Below are positions 11,475 to 24,848 of a DNA stretch of 34,858 nucleotides, piece after piece. The notes beneath the pieces were generated by a model, which had not been told where the DNA came from, did no database searches, and saw only the letters and a list, made by a program, of their open reading frames with translations. The stretch's first letter is position 1, and the number at the start of each line of letters is the position of its first letter. Origin of the DNA: Neolecta irregularis DAH-3 (taxonomy: Eukaryota). The translations under genes were made by a program, and so were the position numbers. The DNA is taken from assembly GCA_001929475.1 (NCBI GenBank), contig LXFE01003532.1:1-34858 (forward strand), in the 5' to 3' direction.

Positions 11475-12931
11475 ATGTCCTCTCGTTCTGCCTGCCTCTA
11501 TGGTAAAGATCTCCAGTCCGTACCTGCGAATGACAGTCTAGACCATATTCCTTGCCGGTTTTTTGCCTCCGGAAATGGTTATTGTCGGCGAGGCACAGCT
11601 TGCTGGTACTCGCATTCAGTCCCCGAACAGCGGGGACAAGCTCCGAACCGGAACATGGATAAAACCTGTACCATATGTTTCGAGGATCCAGAAAGGACCG
11701 GGCAACCCTTTGGTCTGCTAGTAGGTTGCCAGCATCCCTTCTGTTTAGGTATGCGCTACTTGACAGATACTCCGCTTACATGCGCAGATTGTATCAGGAA
11801 ATGGAGGACAAGTCAGAGCGGAGAAAGGACTAGGCATTGGTATTTGGTTGGAAGGATAATGATGTTGATTAACTAGTCCGACATGTAGAGCTCCAAGCGA
11901 TTATGTCATTCCAGCATCGCTTTTTCCGACCACTGTCGAAGAGAAAGAGTCGCATATTCGACATCACAAACAAGTATATCCTTACTGCGCCTTCATCTGA
12001 AGTACAAGGTGCTCAAGAAAATTGAATGCAAGTATTTTATCCAATCTGAAATGCACGAAACTCGATGGTGTCCCTTTGGTAACGTATCACCCTACTCTAT
12101 TGCCTCATAGAGTTAAAAATATAGGAATGTCACTACTCTCATAAACAAGACGGTCATGAATATATCTTCAACGAAGACCAACTCGATCAAATTCGTCGTA
12201 GGAAAACTAATCATGATGCTCGAAGGCGTAATACTCTAGAAACAGATGGTCTCGTCAATCGGATTGTGGATTTGGCCGGTGATAGCAGTAGCGAAATCGA
12301 CTTTAATCTTCTTCGAGCATTAGTCCAACTACCAGAATCCGGATCAACTGGTTTCGATGTATCTAATCGACAATTGACAGATCTTGCGGCTGCCTTGGAA
12401 AGATTTCGCCAGAGTTATGGAGCCGATAGCGATGAACATGACTCTGAGGCTGAAGATGATGAAGAAAGTGATTACGGACATGGGGATTCAATTGAAGAGG
12501 ATCACAACAGTAGCCAAGATGAATGGGAATACTACCCCCCATATGATCGGCTTGAAGAGTTTGCAAATAACGTGGTCTTGGAAATTGATGATAATGGCTC
12601 CAGTGGAGATGAGGAAGAACCCCCTCCGGAGATTTTACCTGATCCTCGAGCTTCTTCCTTCTATCGTCAACACCGTCGTTTCGCCCCGCCAACAGCCGGA
12701 TCTTCTTCACTTCGAGCAGTCGAGACAACTCTTCCTATTGGCTCTTCTGCTAACGCCTATGTCGATGAAAATGACTACGACTCCTCTTCAGATGATGAGG
12801 TATCAAGTAAATTATTCTCTTGTAATAATAATAGCAATCAGGAGAGCGGGCTTCGAGCTATGACCAGTTCGCGAACAATATATTATGGGGAATCTACGAT
12901 TATTTTGGATCAGGAAGGTGATTGCATTTAA
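11475..12931 (+). CDS. Makorin-like CCCH-RING-CCCH E3 ubiquitin ligase with acidic tail; introns 11503-11541, 11749-11787, 11840-11876, 11974-12008, 12084-12124
   Basis: CRFFASGNGYCRRGTACWYSH; RING CTIC...FGLLVGCQHPFCLDCIRKWR...CPTCR; CKYF...CPFGNECHYSH. Confidence 0.88.
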
Positions 12932-13317
12932 TGAATACAGTTGGCTCTGCAATCTTGGATGTTGGAGTTTATCTAATCCTTTTCCGTATTTATCGGCGGG
13001 GTAATAGTCTTTCTGAACCAATCTAAGATACATAGCATATTTATTGAATTCTTAGGTTTGATTCTAGAAATAATCTCCCTTATTCTGACAGTTTGTCCTC
13101 TATCTTAACTGGTGAAAATTAAAGTGAATTCCATTAATGATTTCATGGTTCATTGAGGCTTAGTAGTTTATGAGACGACTATGTCAGCAATAGCTGAAAT
13201 TCATATTAGAACGTTGTAATGCTGATAAAATGCCATTTCAAAAATAGAATTCAGTCTTGTACCCAAGCTGGATTGTAAATCGGCCTCGACTCACCTTCCA
13301 ACTTGGTATTAGGAACT

Positions 13318-13967
13318 ATGGTGAAGAAACTGTCTGTTCTGTTCGTATGGAAAGCAGCTATTCTTTAAAGTTTCTGATTTCTTAGCCTGGGAAACATGTA
13401 AGCCAACAATGAATTCGGGAGAATTCACCTGATTCTCCTATACAGATGTCGAAGTCCGATGGCCGAAGCCGTATTTCGACAGGCAGTTAAAGAAAAGGGA
13501 CTTGAACTGAAATTTGATATGATCGATTCTGCTGGAAGTAAGCAAATACCTTCGAACCAGGGGATAACGGTTACTGAAATAAATCAGCAAGTGCTTGGCA
13601 TATAGGAGGAAATCCCGATAAACGATCTGCTCAAACGTGTAAAAAGCACGGTATTTTAATCGAACATACTGGAAGGCAAGTATGTGAAGGAGACTTCACA
13701 CAGTTTGATTACATACTGGCTATGGACGACTCGAACTTATCGGATTTGTTGGAGATTAGGCCCTCAAATTCCACATCTAAGAGTATATTCTTGCCCGTTA
13801 AGAGCAAGGGTTTATTTCTAGTTGAACTCTTTGGCAAATATGCGCGAGATTCTCATAAAAGGATTATAGATGACCCTTATTACGGCGGCCCGCAAGGATT
13901 CGAAATAAATTACCAACAGATTAAATCGTTCTCAGAAAACTTTCTCGAAGGCATAATATTTGATTAA
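13318..13967 (+). CDS. LTP1: Low-molecular-weight protein tyrosine phosphatase (Ltp1/Stp1 family); introns 13350-13385 (GA-AG), 13398-13445, 13538-13587, 13783-13821
   Basis: Spliced [50 protein letters not shown]. Confidence 0.92.
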
Positions 13968-14038
13968 GGAAGATTCCTATATACAAAAAAGGCTATATCT
14001 GATGACGAATGCAATGGACATAAATATGGAGAGAGCTT

Positions 14039-17000
14039 TCATGCAGTATAAGGGCGGTGTTCGCTATTATATTCGTTGACTGTTTAATCAGTTTCATCTT
14101 TATCCCGACAACATACCTGCCAATCCTATCTTTCTGTAAAGGTAGAGCCTAGAAATTTCGGTATCAATAGGCACAAACGGGCCTTGTAAACCCCCTCTTA
14201 GCACCAAGGCAATTCCTGTTTTCTCTAACGATATTGTTTGAAGCTCTTTAAAAGCAACCTCCCACTCAATTGTCAACCTCTTAGATTTGATTAGCATAAT
14301 TCGAGAGTAGGTGAGCATCATAATCTTGTCATTCCCAGGGAGTTCGAGGTGGGCCAGATATTGTTCATCCGAACCGATAAACCTTCCCTTGTCAAGCTGC
14401 TTGAGCCAGTATTGTCCCAGAGCTAATATTAATATATAAATCTTGAATGAGAACATACCCTCGCGATGATTGTATGGTCGGACGATAGCATCCTTCCCAA
14501 TATATCTGGGAAGTCGGATTCTATCGATGCCATCACGATCAAATACGGTAGTAGTATTGCGAATTCCTTCAGTGAGATTGCTGGCAAGATCAAAAACACC
14601 AACTACGGGTTTCGTGGCAAAACTTGACGTTAAAAAACTTGTTAGTTTCACGCACATACCCAACTAAACCTTTCCCGACTCCTCGGAAAAAGCCCGCCGC
14701 ACCATCCTTCTCAGCTCCTTCAAGTGGTTGTTTCGCCAAGCCTTCGAACCCACTGGCAATGCTGGTTGCAAAAGATGTGGCTCCAGCTGTTACACCATAC
14801 AGTGCATGTCTAGGTCGATTACGGACACGAGATATTCTTCGTTTTGCTTGATACTCTTTGTCCATCGTTGCAGTTGAAAGACCTTTTGATATACTTCCGG
14901 TGACCTTGGTGACGGAGTCGGTAATTCCAAAAACAGTTTTCTTTACGAAGCTTGCTGCACCTTTTGCCAGCCCTTTTCCAAGTTCTTGTGGACTATCGCT
15001 CATGACAAAGCCTTGATATGGTTCATAAAATATATCAGCAACCCCAGAACTAACATTATTGAAGAGGCCAACAGGATTACCGAGAAAGTCGGCAGACCCC
15101 AGAATCTTATGTAGCTGGTAGAAGAATTCCTGGCCATAATGACTTTGTATACGTTGAATGAGGAGTGGGAGCGACATTCGTACGTTCTCCATCAGCAAAG
15201 CGTTCAGCTTTACCGGCGCATCATTGATATTTCCGATAGCCATTGTTAGAACATTAAGGAAGAACGCAAAGGGGTTCCGTGAGGATGTTCTAGGAATGAG
15301 AAAACAAGTCTCAGGGTAGAGATTACTTGTCTTCGACATTTATGCGTTCTGTTCTCACAAATGAAAGGTTCATTTGGGCTGGCTGCAGGTGCAGGACTTC
15401 AAAATAAACATCTAGGCCGGATGTTTCTGTCTGTGGTTCAGGAATTTCCAGTCGATCATCGCAAAGTTTCCCTTCATTCTGCTCAGACCAGTTATCACCC
15501 GGGATTTTGATGAAGTCAAGCAATGCAAATAGAAAATCCTCATCGATCTCGACGCTCAACTCTTGCAATAAAAGCGTCGCATACTTGACGTAGACAACGC
15601 CGTGGGCTTGAATATCAAAATTGCGAAACTCAAATGTTTCTTACAGTCATCTTTCACCATCGTAATTTGCGTGTGAAAGGCAGGGTGTGCCTCTGCTTCT
15701 TTTCCGGATTTTGGGATGACAGTGGGATATAAAATAATCGGATAGAGGCCTCCATATAACTGATTGTCGATCTAATGTTAAAAAGAGACCGCACGTTGAC
15801 TTGTTACCTGTATCCATTTCACAATGGTCTCTACCGTCTGGTAAATTGTCGAATCACTATATTTGATTTCAAGTCCTCTGAGCGTCAAATAAGCCAACTC
15901 CTGTAAACGATTGTTGATCAAAGAAATCCCGATTCCCTCAAAATTCAAGAGAACTTCAAAAGTGGTTTTGGCGTCCAGGCTGATAACGTCAAAAGCTTCA
16001 CGATCGATGACTGTTCCACGATATGTCGCTGAACCAGCATCTAACTCTTTTTTCACAGGACGATAGATACTCTTAGATTGCTTATAGTTCGAAAGAACCA
16101 AAGTCTGTGTTGGTCCGTCTGCAACTACATTGATCTCAATGACTTTGGGTTTGGCGCCCGGCATCTAGCCACTGTCAGTCTCTGCAATAGGATGCACTTA
16201 CCGAAAGTTTCATGGGAATAAGATTTCCGATCTCAGCCAATTTGACATGACGTTCCTTCCCATTTGCGCTTATGATCAATTCCTTATTCTGCGTTGCAGG
16301 ATAATCCCAAGCATAAGGCATAACACTTCGAGCTGGAAGACTGTACGTCTTGCTTGTGTGAAGAGATCGCCTTCGACTTTGAGGAGATTCTCTGTCATCA
16401 TTTTGGATATTGACCGGATGCTAAAAGAGTCAGAAGAGTCAGAGGTTAACCCTACAGCTTGCCAAAAGACGAAATCAGTGTCGCTTTCGTTTCGAATCGA
16501 GTATGGCCAACTATTTTCGACACCGATGTGAATGAATACGACAGCTTTTTCAAGCATGATCTCTATTTTGACTAGTTGCTGACGTTCATTGCCCTTTGAC
16601 ATCTTTACGTGAACTCGGCCCACATCCTGAATATTGAATGGTGCCGACCTGACGTATCAACACAACCAGCAATAGGTGATACGTGCCATTCATTGCCCAG
16701 GCCTGGAAAACACATAACCATTTGTTTTTCTTGTGTTTGCCTCAGAAAATGCAAAGGAAAACGAGTGTGCGCTTTAAGCGTCCGCACTATAGAGGATCCT
16801 GGCTCACGAATGTTAAGATCTTCATCAAGGATACTGTTGAGAATGAAGCGCGGCGTCAGTGTAACAACTTTTGTCATCTTATACTGAAGGTAAGCATCTC
16901 AGGGCATTCTTGAAGTGAAATACTTTGCCTTCGCCTTCATCGACACAAATCCCGATATGAAACTCAGATTCATTGGTGGACGACGGAAGGATTGCTTCTG

Positions 17001-20000
17001 CAACACTTCCGATAGCTTCAAAGCTTTGGGGCTTACTCCACTCGGAATCTGCGAATTTAAGGACAGCTCGGTTCCGTCTCTCATCATTGCTATATGCAAA
17101 CATATACGGTTTGGCTTCCCCTTTATTTCCTGCATTCAGTTGGCCTGCGGCCACTTTGGCCGAGGACAAAAAGGATTTAGATTTTATTTGCATGTCGAGA
17201 CCGGTCATGTTGAGAATAACATATGGTGAATATACTGACACTTCGAAGGCCATTCCGCTATCAGGAAGGTCCCTAAACACTTAAAAAAACAGCAAACATC
17301 AATGATTTACCGATAATGAAGCCTCAGTGGTAACTTCAGTCCGTTTTGATCTTCAAGAACAATTTTTTTCTCGCGCCCATAGTCTTCTGGGTTTCGTGTG
17401 TTGATGATTGAAAAATCGCTGGGTTTATAAACTACATTGTCAGATCGCAAAGAAAATTAACTGCGTACTATCGTCTTCTAAATCGATACTCATGAGCAAG
17501 AGATGCGATAATTCTACTACGTGAATAGGCTGTTGCCCCCCTTTCCTTAAGAACATACTCCAGTTTTTGCGAGAATTCTTATCGTATATCCTAAACTTCA
17601 TATCTACAGGAAGTAGGTTTTTAATCATAATTGGGGCGGAGATTCTGAGAGTCATATAAGGATAGACCTTTGTAAGAGGATTTCCCTTGTCATAGCGAGT
17701 ATGCAGCTGAAACCAGTATGGCGATTCATCGCGCTCATTTGCAGGACAGGCAATTGAGCGAGTTGGATTAGCCATGAGATCCTTCCAAAACATGCCTTCC
17801 CCGCACCATGTATAGCCAAAGCCAGCTATATATTAAGTTATTTTCCTTCAGTGGAAATGCCTTACAGTCTGGTTTAATCCGAATTGATTTTTCAAAAGCA
17901 GCTTGGATGGGAACAGGTCGGTCTTCGTCCGGGGCTAATCATCAGTCAAAGTACTAAGAACAAAAATAACCAATTTTATAGACGTGTACAACAGTCTTCT
18001 CATTCATAATCGCCATTTCGACTGGAATTGAAGTCCGGTTCTCCACCAAAAAAGAGGATCTCAACGTAATTACTTTGACGTTGTCTGTTCCGAGTTTGAC
18101 TTCGCAAAGAAGTCGATGGCTGGTTTGCTGCCGTTTAGATCTGAGTGAGTACATAACCTCGCCTTCGCGATCAACGGGTATATTCGAAATATTAAGCCAT
18201 TCGGAACGTTCAATTTTGATACCAATGCCATTTACATCATTATCAGTGCCCCGGTCTTTGTCCGCCGCCGACTATCAAATGAATTGTCCGTAAAGGAAAG
18301 AATACACACCTCTCGAAGTTTCCACCAATCTTCAAATTGCCATGGAACATCTTCACCGTCGGCCAAGTGTTTCACGTGTTTGGGTATGTCATCGTGTTTA
18401 GAAACAGATGTCCAGACTTGCATAGGGTAGCCTGTTCGATTCCGTATTTTGTAGGGAGCATCGGTCTCTCGAGTCTTTGACAGCACATCATCTGGTTTTT
18501 GCGAGATATAGTTCATAACGGTCATAGCTGTGGCAATTGTCTTCGAAGTGACCGTAAGCTCTAGACGCTTTGGAGAAGAAACTCTGACCGAAAATTTATC
18601 CAGCTTAGAGTCGTGGTTCATCTGCTCATTAATATATTGAACCAAAAAAGTACGAATCATACATGGACACGGAAGTCCCACTTTTCAGCAAGAGGTTCCC
18701 AGTGCGAATTTGAAAAGTTATACGCATTAATATAGGTTGACATTTTAGTATCGACCTTCATCTCGGATGACCAATCTTTCACATCCGCGGAAAACTGACT
18801 GACATTCAAATCTAAAAACGGAAGTTCGTGCATATCTCCAATTAGTACGAGGCGAAGGCCATCGAATGTGGCTCGAAGTTTTTCGATTCTTTTCACTGCT
18901 ACAGTCGCTGGCTTCTCCAGTGAGGGATGTCGATCATCGTGCATTGTGAGCAAGGCCTTTCTAGTTGGTTTCGTAACTGGTGAAAGAGCATGACCACTTG
19001 CAGTACGATGTTTAATTTGTAGACTCTGACGTTCTTTGTCATTATAGATACTGTAATTTGTCTTGGATGACTGTCCATTCTGGGTGTCCCCGGAAAGCTC
19101 GTACGCTCTGTTGATGATCGCTGTAACTAGCTTAATGTCATGGAAAGAAAGCCGAACGACGAGAGGGTTAACATCGATTGCAATGCTCGTGAACTCTCCC
19201 TTGAGACTATCAGATCGCGACTCCATTGACAAATTAATATCGAAATCATCGAGAACTCGGATTCTCGTCCCGTCAAGTTTGTCCATTTTGCATAGATACA
19301 TTCCAATCTCTTGAGCCGTCACAGTCATGACCGTCTGCTGAGAAATAACAAACGCTTTTGCGTTTAATACAATTGCTTCAGAAGTGGGCGATGTTGGATC
19401 CGCGATCAAAATTACCGAAGCGTTATTAATGTTTAAACGGTAGGCCATAGTCATGGTCACTCCGGTTTGAGCTGGAGACTCGGGCCGACCTACTTCACTT
19501 CTATTGAAAGAGACGGCATTCGATCGTTCGGCAGCAAGCTCTGAAGTAGATTCACCGTTGGAACAAACGTACGAAGCGGTTTCTGCAGGCGACAAATCTG
19601 AATATATTTCATCTGTAATTTCCTCGGCAGGAAACGCCGAATATGCAAAATCTCGCATTGCGAATAAGTGATCAAGTGCAAAAATTAACTGAGGGCTATC
19701 AGCCGCAAGCATGGCAATCATACTTCGCTCTTCGCCCCCGGATATTGTTACATTCGCAGTAAACTGACTTCCATTGTGTTTAATAGCAGGTATGACTTCT
19801 CGAAACTGATTATTTTGATGCTTCCTGGTATCGCTAATTGTAAAGCTCTTAATTGTCAACCCTGATTCTGAGGCTCCATCGGAAGACATTCGAACATTGA
19901 CATTTGTATTATTGAGAGAAAACTTGGACAGGCTGTGATCTTCAATATCTTTAACTGCAAGGCCTTCTTGATTATTGAATATTTCCAAAGCAATAGTATC

Positions 20001-23000
20001 GATTTTAAATGAGAGTCCAAGGGTGTCCCAGATATCCGCTTTGTCTTCTTTCAGAGTCACTGGCGAAACAATATCGACGTTTACTTCTTGGTTATTGTTG
20101 TCGGCTTGATCTTTCTCTCTCTGGATGTCAGTGTTGTTTGATTCTTGATTCGCTCTGAGATCTTCAGGTGCCTCCTTGAGCTCGAGAGTTGGCTCAACTT
20201 GGAATACTCTGGGAATAGATTGGCCCAGTTCCATCAAGAATCTAGCTTGCGTTTGGGTCAATTTCATTTTCAAATCTGAGAGAAATCCTTCAATCTCAAG
20301 ATCTGCTCGTTCTAAGCCAGATTGATGTTCAGCATAAACGACATCGAATTGTAGAGTGACATCATCCATCATGGATAGATTTTCCACCTGCCCATCTTCA
20401 AACACAATCTGAGAAGATAATCCAATCTTTCTTAGACCAGCCTTGATATGGTTGCTCACTAAGGATCCCTTCGATTTACTGAGCAGCTCAAATGAGTTAT
20501 GAGCAAATATCTCACCCAATTCAGCCTTGATTATCTGACGGCTTTTTATTTCTCTAATATCCATTCTGGGGAAAATGACAATTGGAGTTCGAATTACGAT
20601 ATCGAAATGCATCCTACTGGCCGTTTCTTGAATATTTGAAGCCTGGTTCAAAGCAACCTCTCGTGCTGTGTCGTATATTGCCTTCATCCTCGCAAATTTA
20701 GTCATAAATTCGAATATCTTTCGGAAAGGCTCTTCAACGAAACTGACTTTTAGTGATCCAGTTCTCAAATACACAGAGGAATCGTATTGCGGGTAGGTTG
20801 AACTGTTCTTAGGATCGTAGACTTCATATCTAAAATCAGCAAGTTCACCACCCTCGAGGCTAATGAGTTGACGGAATGGCGATGCTCGTTGAGCTCCTTG
20901 ATCTATATCATCGGATATCGAGAGATCTCCTAATCGAGCACCAACACGCATGGTATTACCCATCATGAAGATCCCAAGGTCTGCATGTTTCAACGTTAAC
21001 GTAGCTAGTTTGATACCATCATTGTTGAGGACAAGAACGATACTTGAAAGAACGATTTTGGCCCTTAGTTTACTGTCATCGACCGGTTGATTGTCTTGGT
21101 GACGTTGGAAGTCGGCAGGCGATGCCCCTTCCACTTCCAGAAGACTCGACCGGGGAGGATGTTTTGGGTGTGATGGCTGCGATTTGGCATTGTCTTGCTG
21201 GGGAGAAATAAAAGTTAGAATTATATAATCGTATAATGTAAGGATACTCCTTCGAGTGACGATAACATTGATGGTGGATATATGGACATCGATATTTTGC
21301 TGTATTCCTTCGTAAACCTCCATAAAATCTGGAGAGTCGTTTTGGACCGAGGTGTACTTGACTCGAATTAATTCTTGGGTTTGTTCTTTATCAGCAGCTC
21401 GAGCACTAGAGATAATCCTCTTAAACTCCAGAGCAGATGTTGGATCAATCCTATCCTCAACGTGAAGAGACCACAAAGCGACTTCAGCTACCATCCCATA
21501 TTTCCGTTGTACAAAATTTAATGCAAAGCGTTCGAGGACAAGCTCGACCAACAAATCATCTGGCTTTTCTCCCTTTGGATGGGCTTTGAAAAGCGACCCT
21601 TGAAGTTTATCGACAGTAAATTTGAATTCGAAAATATTTTGTTGAATATTGTCTTCATTTTCCATTTCGCTTCGTGCTTCAACAAATAATTCATTGTCAT
21701 TGTTCTCCCGATCTGATTGTTCTCCGGGAAGAGAATCAAGTTCATGTCGAAAAAGGTCATCGTCATGGCCAGTGTTATAGAACGAACCAGCCCTTGCTGA
21801 GCGAGTTCTGGCTGTACTAGGTCTTTCATCTTTCTTATCAGATTGAAATTGCTCGATTGGTGTATTCTTCTCGTCAATGTCGAAATTTGGCATGGCAATA
21901 TCGATAATACGCATCATTGTTTTGTACTTTGAATCACTGATTGAGGCATGTAATAAAGGAAGATGCCCCGTAATTCGAAATTTTGTAAGATTTGGCGCCT
22001 TGGGCAATATTGACATTTCAACCTGAAAAGTCATGTTAATACGATCGACTACATTATATGGTCGATCGTCCGTCATTCTCTTCAACTGATTAAGTGTGCT
22101 TTCAACAGATGGTCCGATTAGTAGTTGGGTTGACTCTAATTGCAGTGTGAACTTGTCATACATCAGCGATTCGAGACGCGAATAGTCTTCTGGTGTATAC
22201 TGATGGCTATGTTTTGCTTGGATTTCTCGAATTTTATTCTTATCAACCAAATCTGAGAAAAGACTGATATGCCCGGCATCAAGTACGATACAGCAGGCAT
22301 CTTTTTTAGTGACACTTTCGGGGATAATAATCAACGGAGCTTGAAGGTCAAGCTTTGCGTTCAAAGTTTTGTGTTCCTCGAGAGCAAATTCAAGGCCAGC
22401 TCGAGTTTGGTTTCGAATTCCTTCAACGGTCGCACCCGCTGCTTCAATAAGCACACCAAGGCTTTCCATCTGACTTTCTGGAGGTTCAAAAAATCGATAA
22501 ATGCTTTCGATGCATCGAGGATTATATATGATCTCCATTGAACGAAGTCGAGCACTCACGGCCGAGTCAGCGCTTTCATCAAGAGGATTTTGTTCAAAGG
22601 AAAAATAAAAGAACGGTTCTTCGGCATCAGGTACAGCAACCACTGCTTCGACTTCATTCTGTTGATTGGTAATATCTCGAGTTTCTGCAGCTTCCACATC
22701 AACGTGTTCCTTGTCTTTCACCTGGACAATTTGTCGGAATAGAGTCCCTTCGGTTGTACCGTCATATACGCGCAGGCCGCCTAGGCTGAGCTCTCCTTTC
22801 ATCGAATCAGCTCTCTGCAGAACATTGGCCCTAAAAGTATCGAAAAGCACTGAAATAATATTGGTGCACTTTCCATGCGGATCCTTTCTCAAGGTAAGAC
22901 TTCCTTGCTTAAGTTCTGCAGAGACTGCTAATTTAATAGAATCTCGAGTTTCATCAACGACAGAGGCAGAAGTCTGACGTTCATCCCAGTCAATCGCATC

Positions 23001-24577
23001 ATATAATTCTTGTTTTTGTGCTTCAGTAATGACAGTTTCTCCCTCTTCATTTGGAGTAGTCTGCTGACTCTGTTGTGTTATCGAGCTCATTAACCAGGAG
23101 CCCCATCCTTGTTTTGCAACAGGGTCAATTGACTTGGTAAGTGCTCGTTCCTTTCGAAGTCGATTACGCGCGAGAGAACGATAAAAACGAATATCCTCGT
23201 AAGAAAGCACCTTTTCCATCTCTTGAAGTTCTGTGGTCTCTGGGGAAACAAGCGTTTCCATGACTTTCTTTTTGAACAACTCAATGTACCTCGTCCGCTG
23301 ATCTCGTCTTTCTTGAAAATATTCCCAAGTCCATTTCCGATTCTTCTCGTGTATCTCTCGAAGAATACAATGTGCTGCGAAGTGAAACCAAGCATGAGGG
23401 TTTTCCGTTACTGAAACGCCTTTGGGTCGATATTTCTGGTAGTGTTGGTGGCGAATATAGAAGTGGAACAAGTCCAACATTAAAAGCGCATCTCGGTATT
23501 GATCTTCGTCAAGTACAAACCCAATTTCATCGAAAAGCAATGTTGTTTTGTTGTTTGGAGTATCCTTTTTGACAATTTTACTTAATTCCAAGCGCCCAGT
23601 GCCGCTGACTGGCTTCAAGATGAATTGGTTGCTTTCCGGAATATGGTCGCCTCGAGAAACAAGTTGACTAAATAAATCCTGTAATTCGTCTGCGGGTTTT
23701 CCAGCAAGAGATTGTGTATCGCTATTCCAATATACCGCCAACGAACCCAGAGTAATGAGTTTGTGGACCATTTCCACGTTATCATGAACGAAGACTGGAT
23801 TCCAGTTTGCGTCAGTAGATGTGGCCGAGAATTCTGATAATGTAATCCCGACAGCAAAGGGATGACTCGGCCCAGACAATTTGTCTTCATATCGAATATG
23901 TATGCACTTGACGCTCACTTGAAGGTTGTCGACAATCTATCTCTTAAAGACATAGATTTGTAAAGCGTACCTTTGCCACGAGAGTGTCTGTGAAGCTCTG
24001 ATTATTTCGGACGTCCTGTTCACTTAATCCTATCGATGACTGTTGAGACAATAATTCGGCGCTAAACCTTTCAGCATATGACACACTACCTAGCATATAC
24101 TTGTCGAGCTTTTCCTGTTTAACAGCTTGTGCTCGACGCCCTTCGTCTTCCTCATCATACTCAAAATTAGCGTATGGATCACAGGGAATAGCTACTTCTT
24201 GCTCTGCTTTCGGCGACGCGAGTAGATACACATTCTCGATGAACACTTTAACGGGTTTGTTTTTCAAATTCGACCATGGAATCTCGATCGTAAGTTCTCC
24301 CAAATATCCTTGGGAAACATCAATGGGCAATCTAAACTTGTCGAGCGCCTGGGTTGGGATTAGGGTAGGGTCTAGAATAGACACGTACCTCTTTCTTCAA
24401 TTCAAGGTTTCGTAACTTGACGGCCCCGGACCAAATGCCGATATTAAGCTGCTTGGGATCAAAGTTCTTGACATAGGCACCGAGAAAGCGATTCAGCAAT
24501 CCTACGACACGCTATCAGCCCTGATTCTATGGACGGGGTATCGAGGAGTCGGTACCGGCTACAAGCGACTCCAACAT
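14039..24577 (-). CDS. VPS13: Vacuolar protein sorting 13, bridge-like lipid transfer protein; ~21 introns
   Basis: Chorein-N start [34 protein letters not shown]-terminal [26 protein letters not shown] and PH-like tail; ends [13 protein letters not shown] at 14039. Confidence 0.97.
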
Positions 24578-24812
24578 GGTAAACAGCCGCGAGCAGGGAG
24601 CCCAGAATCACGAGCAACGCCTAGGGTGTATGATGGTCTTCTGCTATAAAACTTCTGAATGCGGAGGTTGTTTCCGGCCACCCTGCACCACCTCCGTCAC
24701 CGGGGAAATCCAGGTCTCTGGTTCTACATCTGCCTGCTGCAGTTCTGCCTGGTGGAGGCTGCGCAGCGGCCTGCATGTTTGTCTGCCGCGACCTGGGCAT
24801 GACGTCAGGGTC
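24578..24812. promoter_or_regulatory. Short GC-rich bidirectional promoter between VPS13 and the DUF3429 gene, containing a CRE palindrome TGACGTCA (24800-24807)
   Basis: Head-to-head start codons about 235-270 bp apart; ATGACGTCA at 24799-24807. Confidence 0.55.
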
Positions 24813-24848
24813 ATGTCTGCGGCGGGGCGCATCGCTCCCATCACCGCA

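Follow-up and report, generated by a model that had tools for sequence, protein, structure and literature searches.

A gene for a low-molecular-weight phosphotyrosine phosphatase in Neolecta irregularis DAH-3 carries, within the codon for its catalytic cysteine, a putative 36 nt intron that begins with GA and ends with AG. The gene lies on the plus strand at positions 13318–13967 of the window (the whole 34,858-nucleotide stretch of contig LXFE01003532.1 that was analyzed), and consists of five exons that together encode 158 amino acids. The catalytic cysteine exists only if the GA-AG segment is excised. The reading that we tentatively favor, and to which we give slightly less than an even chance, is that this intron is productively spliced in the fungus.

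The gene model was obtained by joining exons by coordinates. Exon 1 (13318–13349, 32 nt) runs from the ATG at 13318 to TTC GTA TG, the final two nucleotides of which are the first two bases of the catalytic Cys codon; in alignment, this exon agrees with the S-V-L-F-V-C of homologues. Intron 1 (13350–13385, 36 nt, GAAAGC...TTCTTAG) follows in phase 2 inside the Cys codon, with a GA donor and an AG acceptor. Exon 2 (13386–13397) is a 12 nt microexon, C CTG GGA AAC AT, which supplies the third base of the Cys codon, L-G-N and two bases of an Ile codon, and which has a 36 nt intron on one side and a 48 nt intron on the other. Next come intron 2 (13398–13445, 48 nt, GTAAGC...ATACAG), exon 3 (13446–13537, 92 nt, opening with completion of the Ile codon) and intron 3 (13538–13587, 50 nt, GTAAGC...AAATCAG); the placement of exon 2 and of introns 2 and 3 is predicted from homology. 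Exon 4 (13588–13782, 195 nt) encodes TSAWHIGGNPDKR...SNSTSK, while exon 5 (13822–13967, 146 nt) encodes the DPYYGG loop and ends with the stop codon TAA at 13965–13967. Between them lies intron 4 (13783–13821, 39 nt, GTATAT...TTTCTAG), the only intron of this gene for which an RNA-type joint is seen (GT..AG, in a contig of the X2 set described below). Intron 4 is in frame and free of stop codons; its retention adds 13 residues without truncating the protein, and the open reading frame at 13578–13967 in the plain ORF list is a read-through across it.

Judged from its sequence, the locus seems to be an intact and so far unannotated gene. Exons 4 and 5, read through intron 4, match the Pfam family LMWPc (PF01451; curated cut-off 23.2 bits) with 75.2 bits (E = 8.1e-21), and exon 3 by itself matches the same family with 33.1 bits (E = 7.4e-08). 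Members of the family include Ltp1 of yeast, Stp1 of fission yeast and mammalian ACP1. The predicted protein resembles these enzymes in its size (~158 aa), its single domain and its two characteristic loops, CLGNICRS and DPYYG. It departs from them in that an intron whose donor is non-canonical interrupts its Cys codon, and in the 12 nt microexon. The first loop, the P-loop C-X5-R-(S/T), is present as CLGNICRS solely when the gene is modelled with the GA donor.

Conservation was assessed against 146 homologues, kept from 269 on the basis of length (145–200 aa) and possession of a P-loop, such that the P-loop columns are conserved by selection. Across this set, 41 columns reach a conservation of 85% or more; the model matches 40 of them and departs at one, with an I in place of V. 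Residues L8, F9, V10 and C11, all contributed by exon 1, fall in columns that are 86–100% conserved (100% for C, by selection), and the DPYYG loop (D128-P129-Y130-Y131-G132) falls in columns that are 95–100% conserved; we take its Asp to be the catalytic general acid. A hidden Markov model built without the predicted protein scores it at 223 bits, placing it at rank 21 of 147, and among the best 24 library matches the spliced N-terminus aligns with the family residue for residue. No further disabling lesions and no relaxed conservation were found across the five-exon frame and the 41 columns. That the remainder of the gene is intact, as a reading of the sequence alone had proposed, is thus upheld by the open five-exon frame and the conserved columns.

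The same sequence-only reading held that removal of a 36 nt GA-AG intron is needed to build the catalytic cysteine, and both the nucleotide sequence and the exon assembly bear this out. The end of exon 1 at 13349 (...TTC GTA TG) is followed by GAAAGC (G at 13350, A at 13351), and the end of intron 1 at 13385 (...ctgatttcttag) by C CTG GGA AAC. Joining 13349 to 13386, together with removal of the three downstream GT-AG introns, yields the open 158-aa frame, and the P-loop with its nucleophile Cys11 (TG|C) arises solely from this joint. An identical mRNA would be produced if the intron were set leftward by a single base (13349–13384, GG..TA); the GA-AG placement is preferred because it keeps an AG acceptor. 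Other outcomes each lose the cysteine, in the ways that had been anticipated. If the intron is kept, translation meets the TAA at 13366–13368 (codon 17). Two candidate cryptic donors lie just upstream on the plus strand: (i) GTATGG (13345–13350), 5 nt upstream of the GA, which gives a 41 nt intron, shifts the frame and ends translation after 27 aa, and (ii) GTTCGT (13341–13346), which with the acceptor at 13385 gives a 45 nt intron and an in-frame product of 155 aa that lacks F-V-C and hence the nucleophile. An alternative first exon was sought among the six upstream TG|G[TC] sites in 12600–13349; none ends in V-C, and all lead to unrelated peptides or stops. A search of the window for a second P-loop (patterns C.G[NS].C and GN.CRS) gave one other match, CVGSWC at 10821, which is unrelated.

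Apart from its second base, intron 1 is typical of its host in length, in positions +3 to +6, in its branch motif and in its TAG acceptor. The standard of comparison is a local set of 24 introns in the window, made up of 20 from VPS13, one from the upstream gene and introns 2–4 of the phosphatase gene; five are supported by X2 joints, 17 by the public VPS13 model, and two (introns 2 and 3) by our own model. The VPS13 gene lies on the minus strand (14042–24577, with its CDS start at 24577) and includes a 1759-aa open frame that is 100% identical to the 3257-aa VPS13 annotated in Neolecta irregularis DAH-3; when the annotated protein is threaded exactly onto the minus strand, the exact segments cover 3253 of the 3257 residues. 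All 20 VPS13 introns are GT-AG, with lengths of 34–54 nt, and the last three coincide with joints in X2 contigs. The 36 nt of intron 1 sit inside this local range. With the second base left out, its donor scores higher than 18 of the 24 local donors (leave-one-out); with T at +2 the donor would read GTAAGC, as in introns 2 and 3, and would score 6.8 bits, near the local median. A branch-site-like CTGAT (CTRAY) on the plus strand at 13374–13378, with its A located 8 nt before the acceptor, may serve as the branch site; CTGAT also occurs in intron 2, and motifs of the CTGAT/CTGAC type in several VPS13 introns.

The two upstream GTs are less well endowed. By the local position weight matrix, under which the 24 known donors score from −1.8 to 9.1 (leave-one-out), the GT at 13341 reaches 3.5 bits and the GT at 13345 only 1.0 bits, the latter with a C at −1 that is found in none of the 24 local donors. 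VPS13 donors are loose beyond GTA, however (GTTATT, GTTGAT, GTGTGT, GTACCG), and an RNA-supported antisense intron at the phosphatase locus itself has a donor of −1.5 bits; weak GTs such as those at 13341 and 13345 are therefore usable in this organism. The proposal that the GA had been chosen over two adjacent GTs stands in part: the products of the two GTs are as described, but both sites are weak by local standards, which softens the point that they are passed over. Use of GA is no habit of the genome, since GT opens every one of the other 24 introns of the window, a sample that excludes only GA frequencies of roughly 10% or more.

Two runs were found to contain this stretch, and their contigs bear on the locus, with word depths of ~420 (X1) and ~71 (X2). 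X1 is a DNA run that contains all sampled words and is possibly the assembly's own source. Both runs are labelled 'DNA?', but we read X2 as cDNA-derived: seven stretches the size of introns, bounded by GT..AG or CT..AC, are skipped in its contigs, and three of these stretches are annotated VPS13 introns. One X2 contig is unbroken from 13035 to 13385, and so crosses exon 1 and the whole of intron 1 in unspliced form. The contig proceeds through two joints of the CT..AC type, corresponding to minus-strand introns: (i) joint 13385>13428, the cut lying one position further right, for an antisense intron at 13387–13428 (42 nt, GTGAAT...CCCAG) that takes out exon 2 of the sense gene along with the greater part of its intron 2, and (ii) joint 13528>13569, for an antisense intron at 13529–13568 (40 nt, GTTATC...CAGCAG). 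It then skips 13783–13821 (GT..AG, sense intron 4) and runs on into VPS13 with minus-strand introns. This contig is thus a mixture: across the 5' half of the phosphatase gene it represents an antisense RNA that has been spliced, and across the 3' part sense mRNA. X2 contains 0.75 of the 91 sampled words, against ~0.74 predicted by this single contig, a comparison too coarse to resolve a second form.

These contigs show that sense transcripts of the phosphatase gene exist, since intron 4 is spliced in X2. They show, too, that the unspliced intron 1 seen in RNA sits on an antisense molecule; with antisense GT-AG joints adjoining it, the contig says little about the sense mRNA. The sense joint 13349>13386 appears in neither of the two X2 contigs over the region, and neither do the sense joints of introns 2 and 3, contigs of this kind being informative about presence and not about absence. 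With the canonical joints of introns 2 and 3 absent too, the absence of the GA joint counts neither for nor against use of the donor. Removal of introns 1–3 from the sense mRNA, use of the GA donor and activity of the enzyme are accordingly all put forward here as predictions from the gene model.

The phosphatase gene (plus strand) and VPS13 (minus strand) converge, with 71 nt between their stop codons (TAA at 13965–13967 and TGA at 14041–14039), and both are spanned by one X2 contig; overlapping transcripts are expected from the proximity of the two stop codons, and the 3' ends of the two genes must overlap. No conserved open reading frame was seen on the strand of the antisense RNA. Both antisense introns carry GCTTAC ~15 nt before the acceptor, where a branch site would be expected; this is the sense donor GTAAGC in reverse complement.

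Under the favored reading, the major (U2-type) spliceosome would treat intron 1 as a GA-AG intron and remove it from some, if not all, of the transcripts. Its recognition would be helped by (i) the G at −1 and the G at +1, (ii) AAGC at +3 to +6, as in the GTAAGC of introns 2 and 3, and (iii) the CTGAT motif 8 nt before the TAG acceptor, together with a typical intron length. U1 may dock on the GT located 5 nt upstream, after the manner of the human FGFR GA site. The joint codon TG|C would then specify the nucleophile Cys11 of the C-X5-R-S loop, giving an active 158-aa enzyme. In favor of this reading are the intact gene, a donor context better than average, the weakness of the decoy GTs and the presence of sense mRNA. 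Against it are the exon context TG|GAA in place of AG|GAA, the low rank of GA among human donors and the 24 of 24 local introns that begin with GT; the unspliced cDNA-type contig also counts against it, with little weight since it is antisense there. Rough reckoning suggests that about one used GA-AG intron might be expected per genome with tens of thousands of introns, and that intact genes whose sole lesion is a T to A change at +2 would be rarer per genome than that.

GA-AG introns are rare yet documented, fungi included. In Fusarium graminearum, GA-AG is among the non-canonical splice sites identified from RNA-seq, and seven genes with non-canonical sites were confirmed by Sanger sequencing (PMC3577648). 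Intron 12 of Trema orientalis SYMRK has a fully functional GA donor, and in several plants ~0.01% of the introns that are annotated belong to the GA-AG type (PMC10668435). Many GA-AG introns are described for both Eurytemora affinis and Oikopleura dioica (PMC7072748; PMC5714493), and the context reported for these GA-rich genomes is AG|GAA (PMC7072748). The GA site of human FGFR1–3 reportedly relies on a canonical GT that lies six bases upstream of it (cited in PMC7072748, PMC6280755), and 'dead-end' is the term for the GA site in the title of Brackenridge 2003 (via citing papers). Human non-canonical donors are used in the order GC > TT > AT > GA > GG > CT, mostly as minor partners of a stronger neighbor (PMC6280755). 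The literature that we searched linked Neolecta with non-canonical splice sites in no case, and a look through 10.1101/479493 yielded no data on +2T>A changes.

Intron 1 shares with the rare U2-type GA-AG introns a G at +1, an A at +2, an AG acceptor and otherwise ordinary U2-type signals; its removal is predicted. With FGFR it shares a canonical GT close upstream, at 5 nt compared with the 6 nt cited for FGFR. The upstream GT of the phosphatase gene is weak by the local matrix, and is a candidate at most for a part in U1 docking. A further difference from FGFR lies in the reading frame: the upstream GT of the phosphatase gene is out of frame, while in FGFR both the GA and the GT site reportedly give in-frame isoforms. 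The parallel with Trema SYMRK is that of a single base change in an otherwise functional gene that, at first look, resembles a pseudogene. From the GA-rich animals the locus differs in exon context (TG|GAA here, AG|GAA there), and the Neolecta window shows no GA habit.

The strongest competing explanation is that a recent T to A change at +2 killed the intron 1 donor, and that the sequenced material has no active low-molecular-weight phosphatase. Sense transcripts would then either retain intron 1, with a stop at codon 17, or be spliced from the GT at 13345, with a frameshift and termination after 27 aa. This is a serious contender, which we hold to be only a little less likely than the favored reading. 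Loss of the low-molecular-weight phosphatase is tolerated in yeasts. With a T restored, the donor would be identical to those of introns 2 and 3, and the uniform use of GT in the local introns fits a donor that has been lost, as does the occurrence of the unspliced form in a cDNA-type contig. According to PMC6280755, GA ranks low among donors and most +1/+2 changes in man are pathogenic. The reduced gene set of Neolecta (14.5 Mb, 5,546 predicted genes; PMC5309816) makes ongoing gene loss plausible. In common with known splice-donor loss alleles, the locus has a +2 change in a GTAAGC-like donor and two GTs no more than 9 nt upstream that lead to a frameshift or a deletion; it differs from such alleles in that the contigs contain no aberrant sense junction and the gene displays no other relaxed constraint. 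The lack of a second lesion, with 40 of 41 conserved columns matched, means that the change would have to be very recent. Furthermore, the contig gives more weight to sense transcripts from which intron 4 has been removed than to the unspliced form, even though nonsense-mediated decay would be expected to reduce such transcripts in a null allele, and the rough estimate above makes genes with a sole lesion of this type rarer per genome than used GA-AG introns. Productive GA-AG splicing is preferred by a small margin. The suggestion that a functional GA donor is the simplest reading is supported only in part: the excision is required for the cysteine, but no contig shows joint 13349>13386, and with a null allele that explains the locus nearly as well, a functional donor is not clearly the simplest reading.

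A third possibility, which we consider improbable, is that the in-frame GT at 13341 is the donor in use, alone or beside the GA, and that the resulting 155-aa protein is catalytically dead but may still bind substrate. The product is in frame, GTT-type donors are used in VPS13 (GTTATT, GTTGAT), and a 45 nt intron fits the local range. Set against this, the donor score is low, three residues that are 93–100% conserved would be lost along with the start of the P-loop, and X2 contigs contain no joint for such an intron. A variant that we regard as slightly more doubtful still has both the GA and the GT nine bases upstream in use, giving an active phosphatase and a Cys-less, substrate-binding form. 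In that same doubtful scheme, the choice of donor would set the ratio of the two forms, perhaps under the influence of the overlapping spliced antisense RNA. Such an arrangement would make a natural on/off switch out of a non-canonical splice site that lies within a catalytic codon.

We think it unlikelier again that the A at 13351 is not the organism's base, or not its only one, whether through a systematic error or through a mixed or heterokaryotic sample in which A is the minor or the major allele and another allele has T. X1 may be the very data behind the assembly, and contigs drop rare variants, both of which leave some room for this explanation. Over 12300–15300, however, the X1 and X2 contigs show no differing letters and no insertions or deletions. 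A T at 13351 was looked for, and both sets have A at that position, with the proviso just given that contigs drop rare variants. An assembly or consensus error is unlikely because the A is found in two separately built contig sets, one of the DNA type and the other of the cDNA type. The GA at +1/+2 and the AG at the 3' end of intron 1 are thus present in genomic DNA, as seen in contigs of which the X1 set is possibly the source of the assembly.

Finally, an intron of the U12 type, handled by the minor spliceosome, was considered and rejected. U12 introns have a rigid RTATCCTT donor and a TCCTTAAC-like branch site, and ascomycetes are generally regarded as lacking the minor spliceosome. A loose likeness to the branch consensus of U12 introns is seen in the motif TTCTTTAAA, located 16–18 nt before the acceptor, but the donor GAAAGCAG is unlike RTATCCTT and fails this rigid signal, leaving the idea with next to no probability.

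The phosphatase gene seems to be missing from the published protein set of the genome, because the VPS13 of the same contig is present there while no close phosphatase is. Among proteins of at least 68 aa, no public model more than 57% identical was found; the top listed value of 57% belongs to a 93-aa fragment, and the closest full-length library proteins are ~49–53% identical. A longer or fused protein sharing sequence with the model was sought among 145 candidates, none of which matched at E <= 1e-8. Metagenome scans with a degenerate pattern for AWHIGGNPDKR, and with a 27-mer spanning the junction of exon 1 and intron 1, its +2 position left as N, returned nothing. In the main text of the Neolecta genome paper (PMC5309816), introns, RNA-seq and a transcriptome go unmentioned. 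A gene finder restricted to GT and GC donors cannot build this gene, and this is the likely reason for its missing annotation.

If the GA donor is used, the locus offers (i) a GA-AG intron that is both natural and clean, belonging to a fungus with some of the shortest introns known (34–54 nt in the window), (ii) an unambiguous read-out, in that the catalytic Cys exists only after correct splicing, and (iii) a handy substrate for probing the +2 tolerance of a short-intron spliceosome. If the donor is instead dead, the locus shows gene loss at its very outset. In both cases, a conserved gene for an enzyme is seemingly absent from the public protein set, and such misses matter since the Neolecta genome is used in presence/absence arguments on gene loss. 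At best, the intron is another case of a known, rare kind; at worst, it marks an ordinary donor-dead allele.

Several further features of the window were noted. The assembly contains two gaps, each a run of 10 N (9186–9195 and 34782–34791), the first of which is inside a long open frame. A GC-rich island at 24000–25100 (GC content 0.52, compared with ~0.42 elsewhere) contains long overlapping open frames on both strands, and the 5' end of VPS13 falls inside it. On the plus strand, a C/D-box snoRNA is found at 26995–27077; this match to Rfam snR75 (RF01185; 69.8 bits, E = 2.1e-12) is the only one in the window at gathering score.
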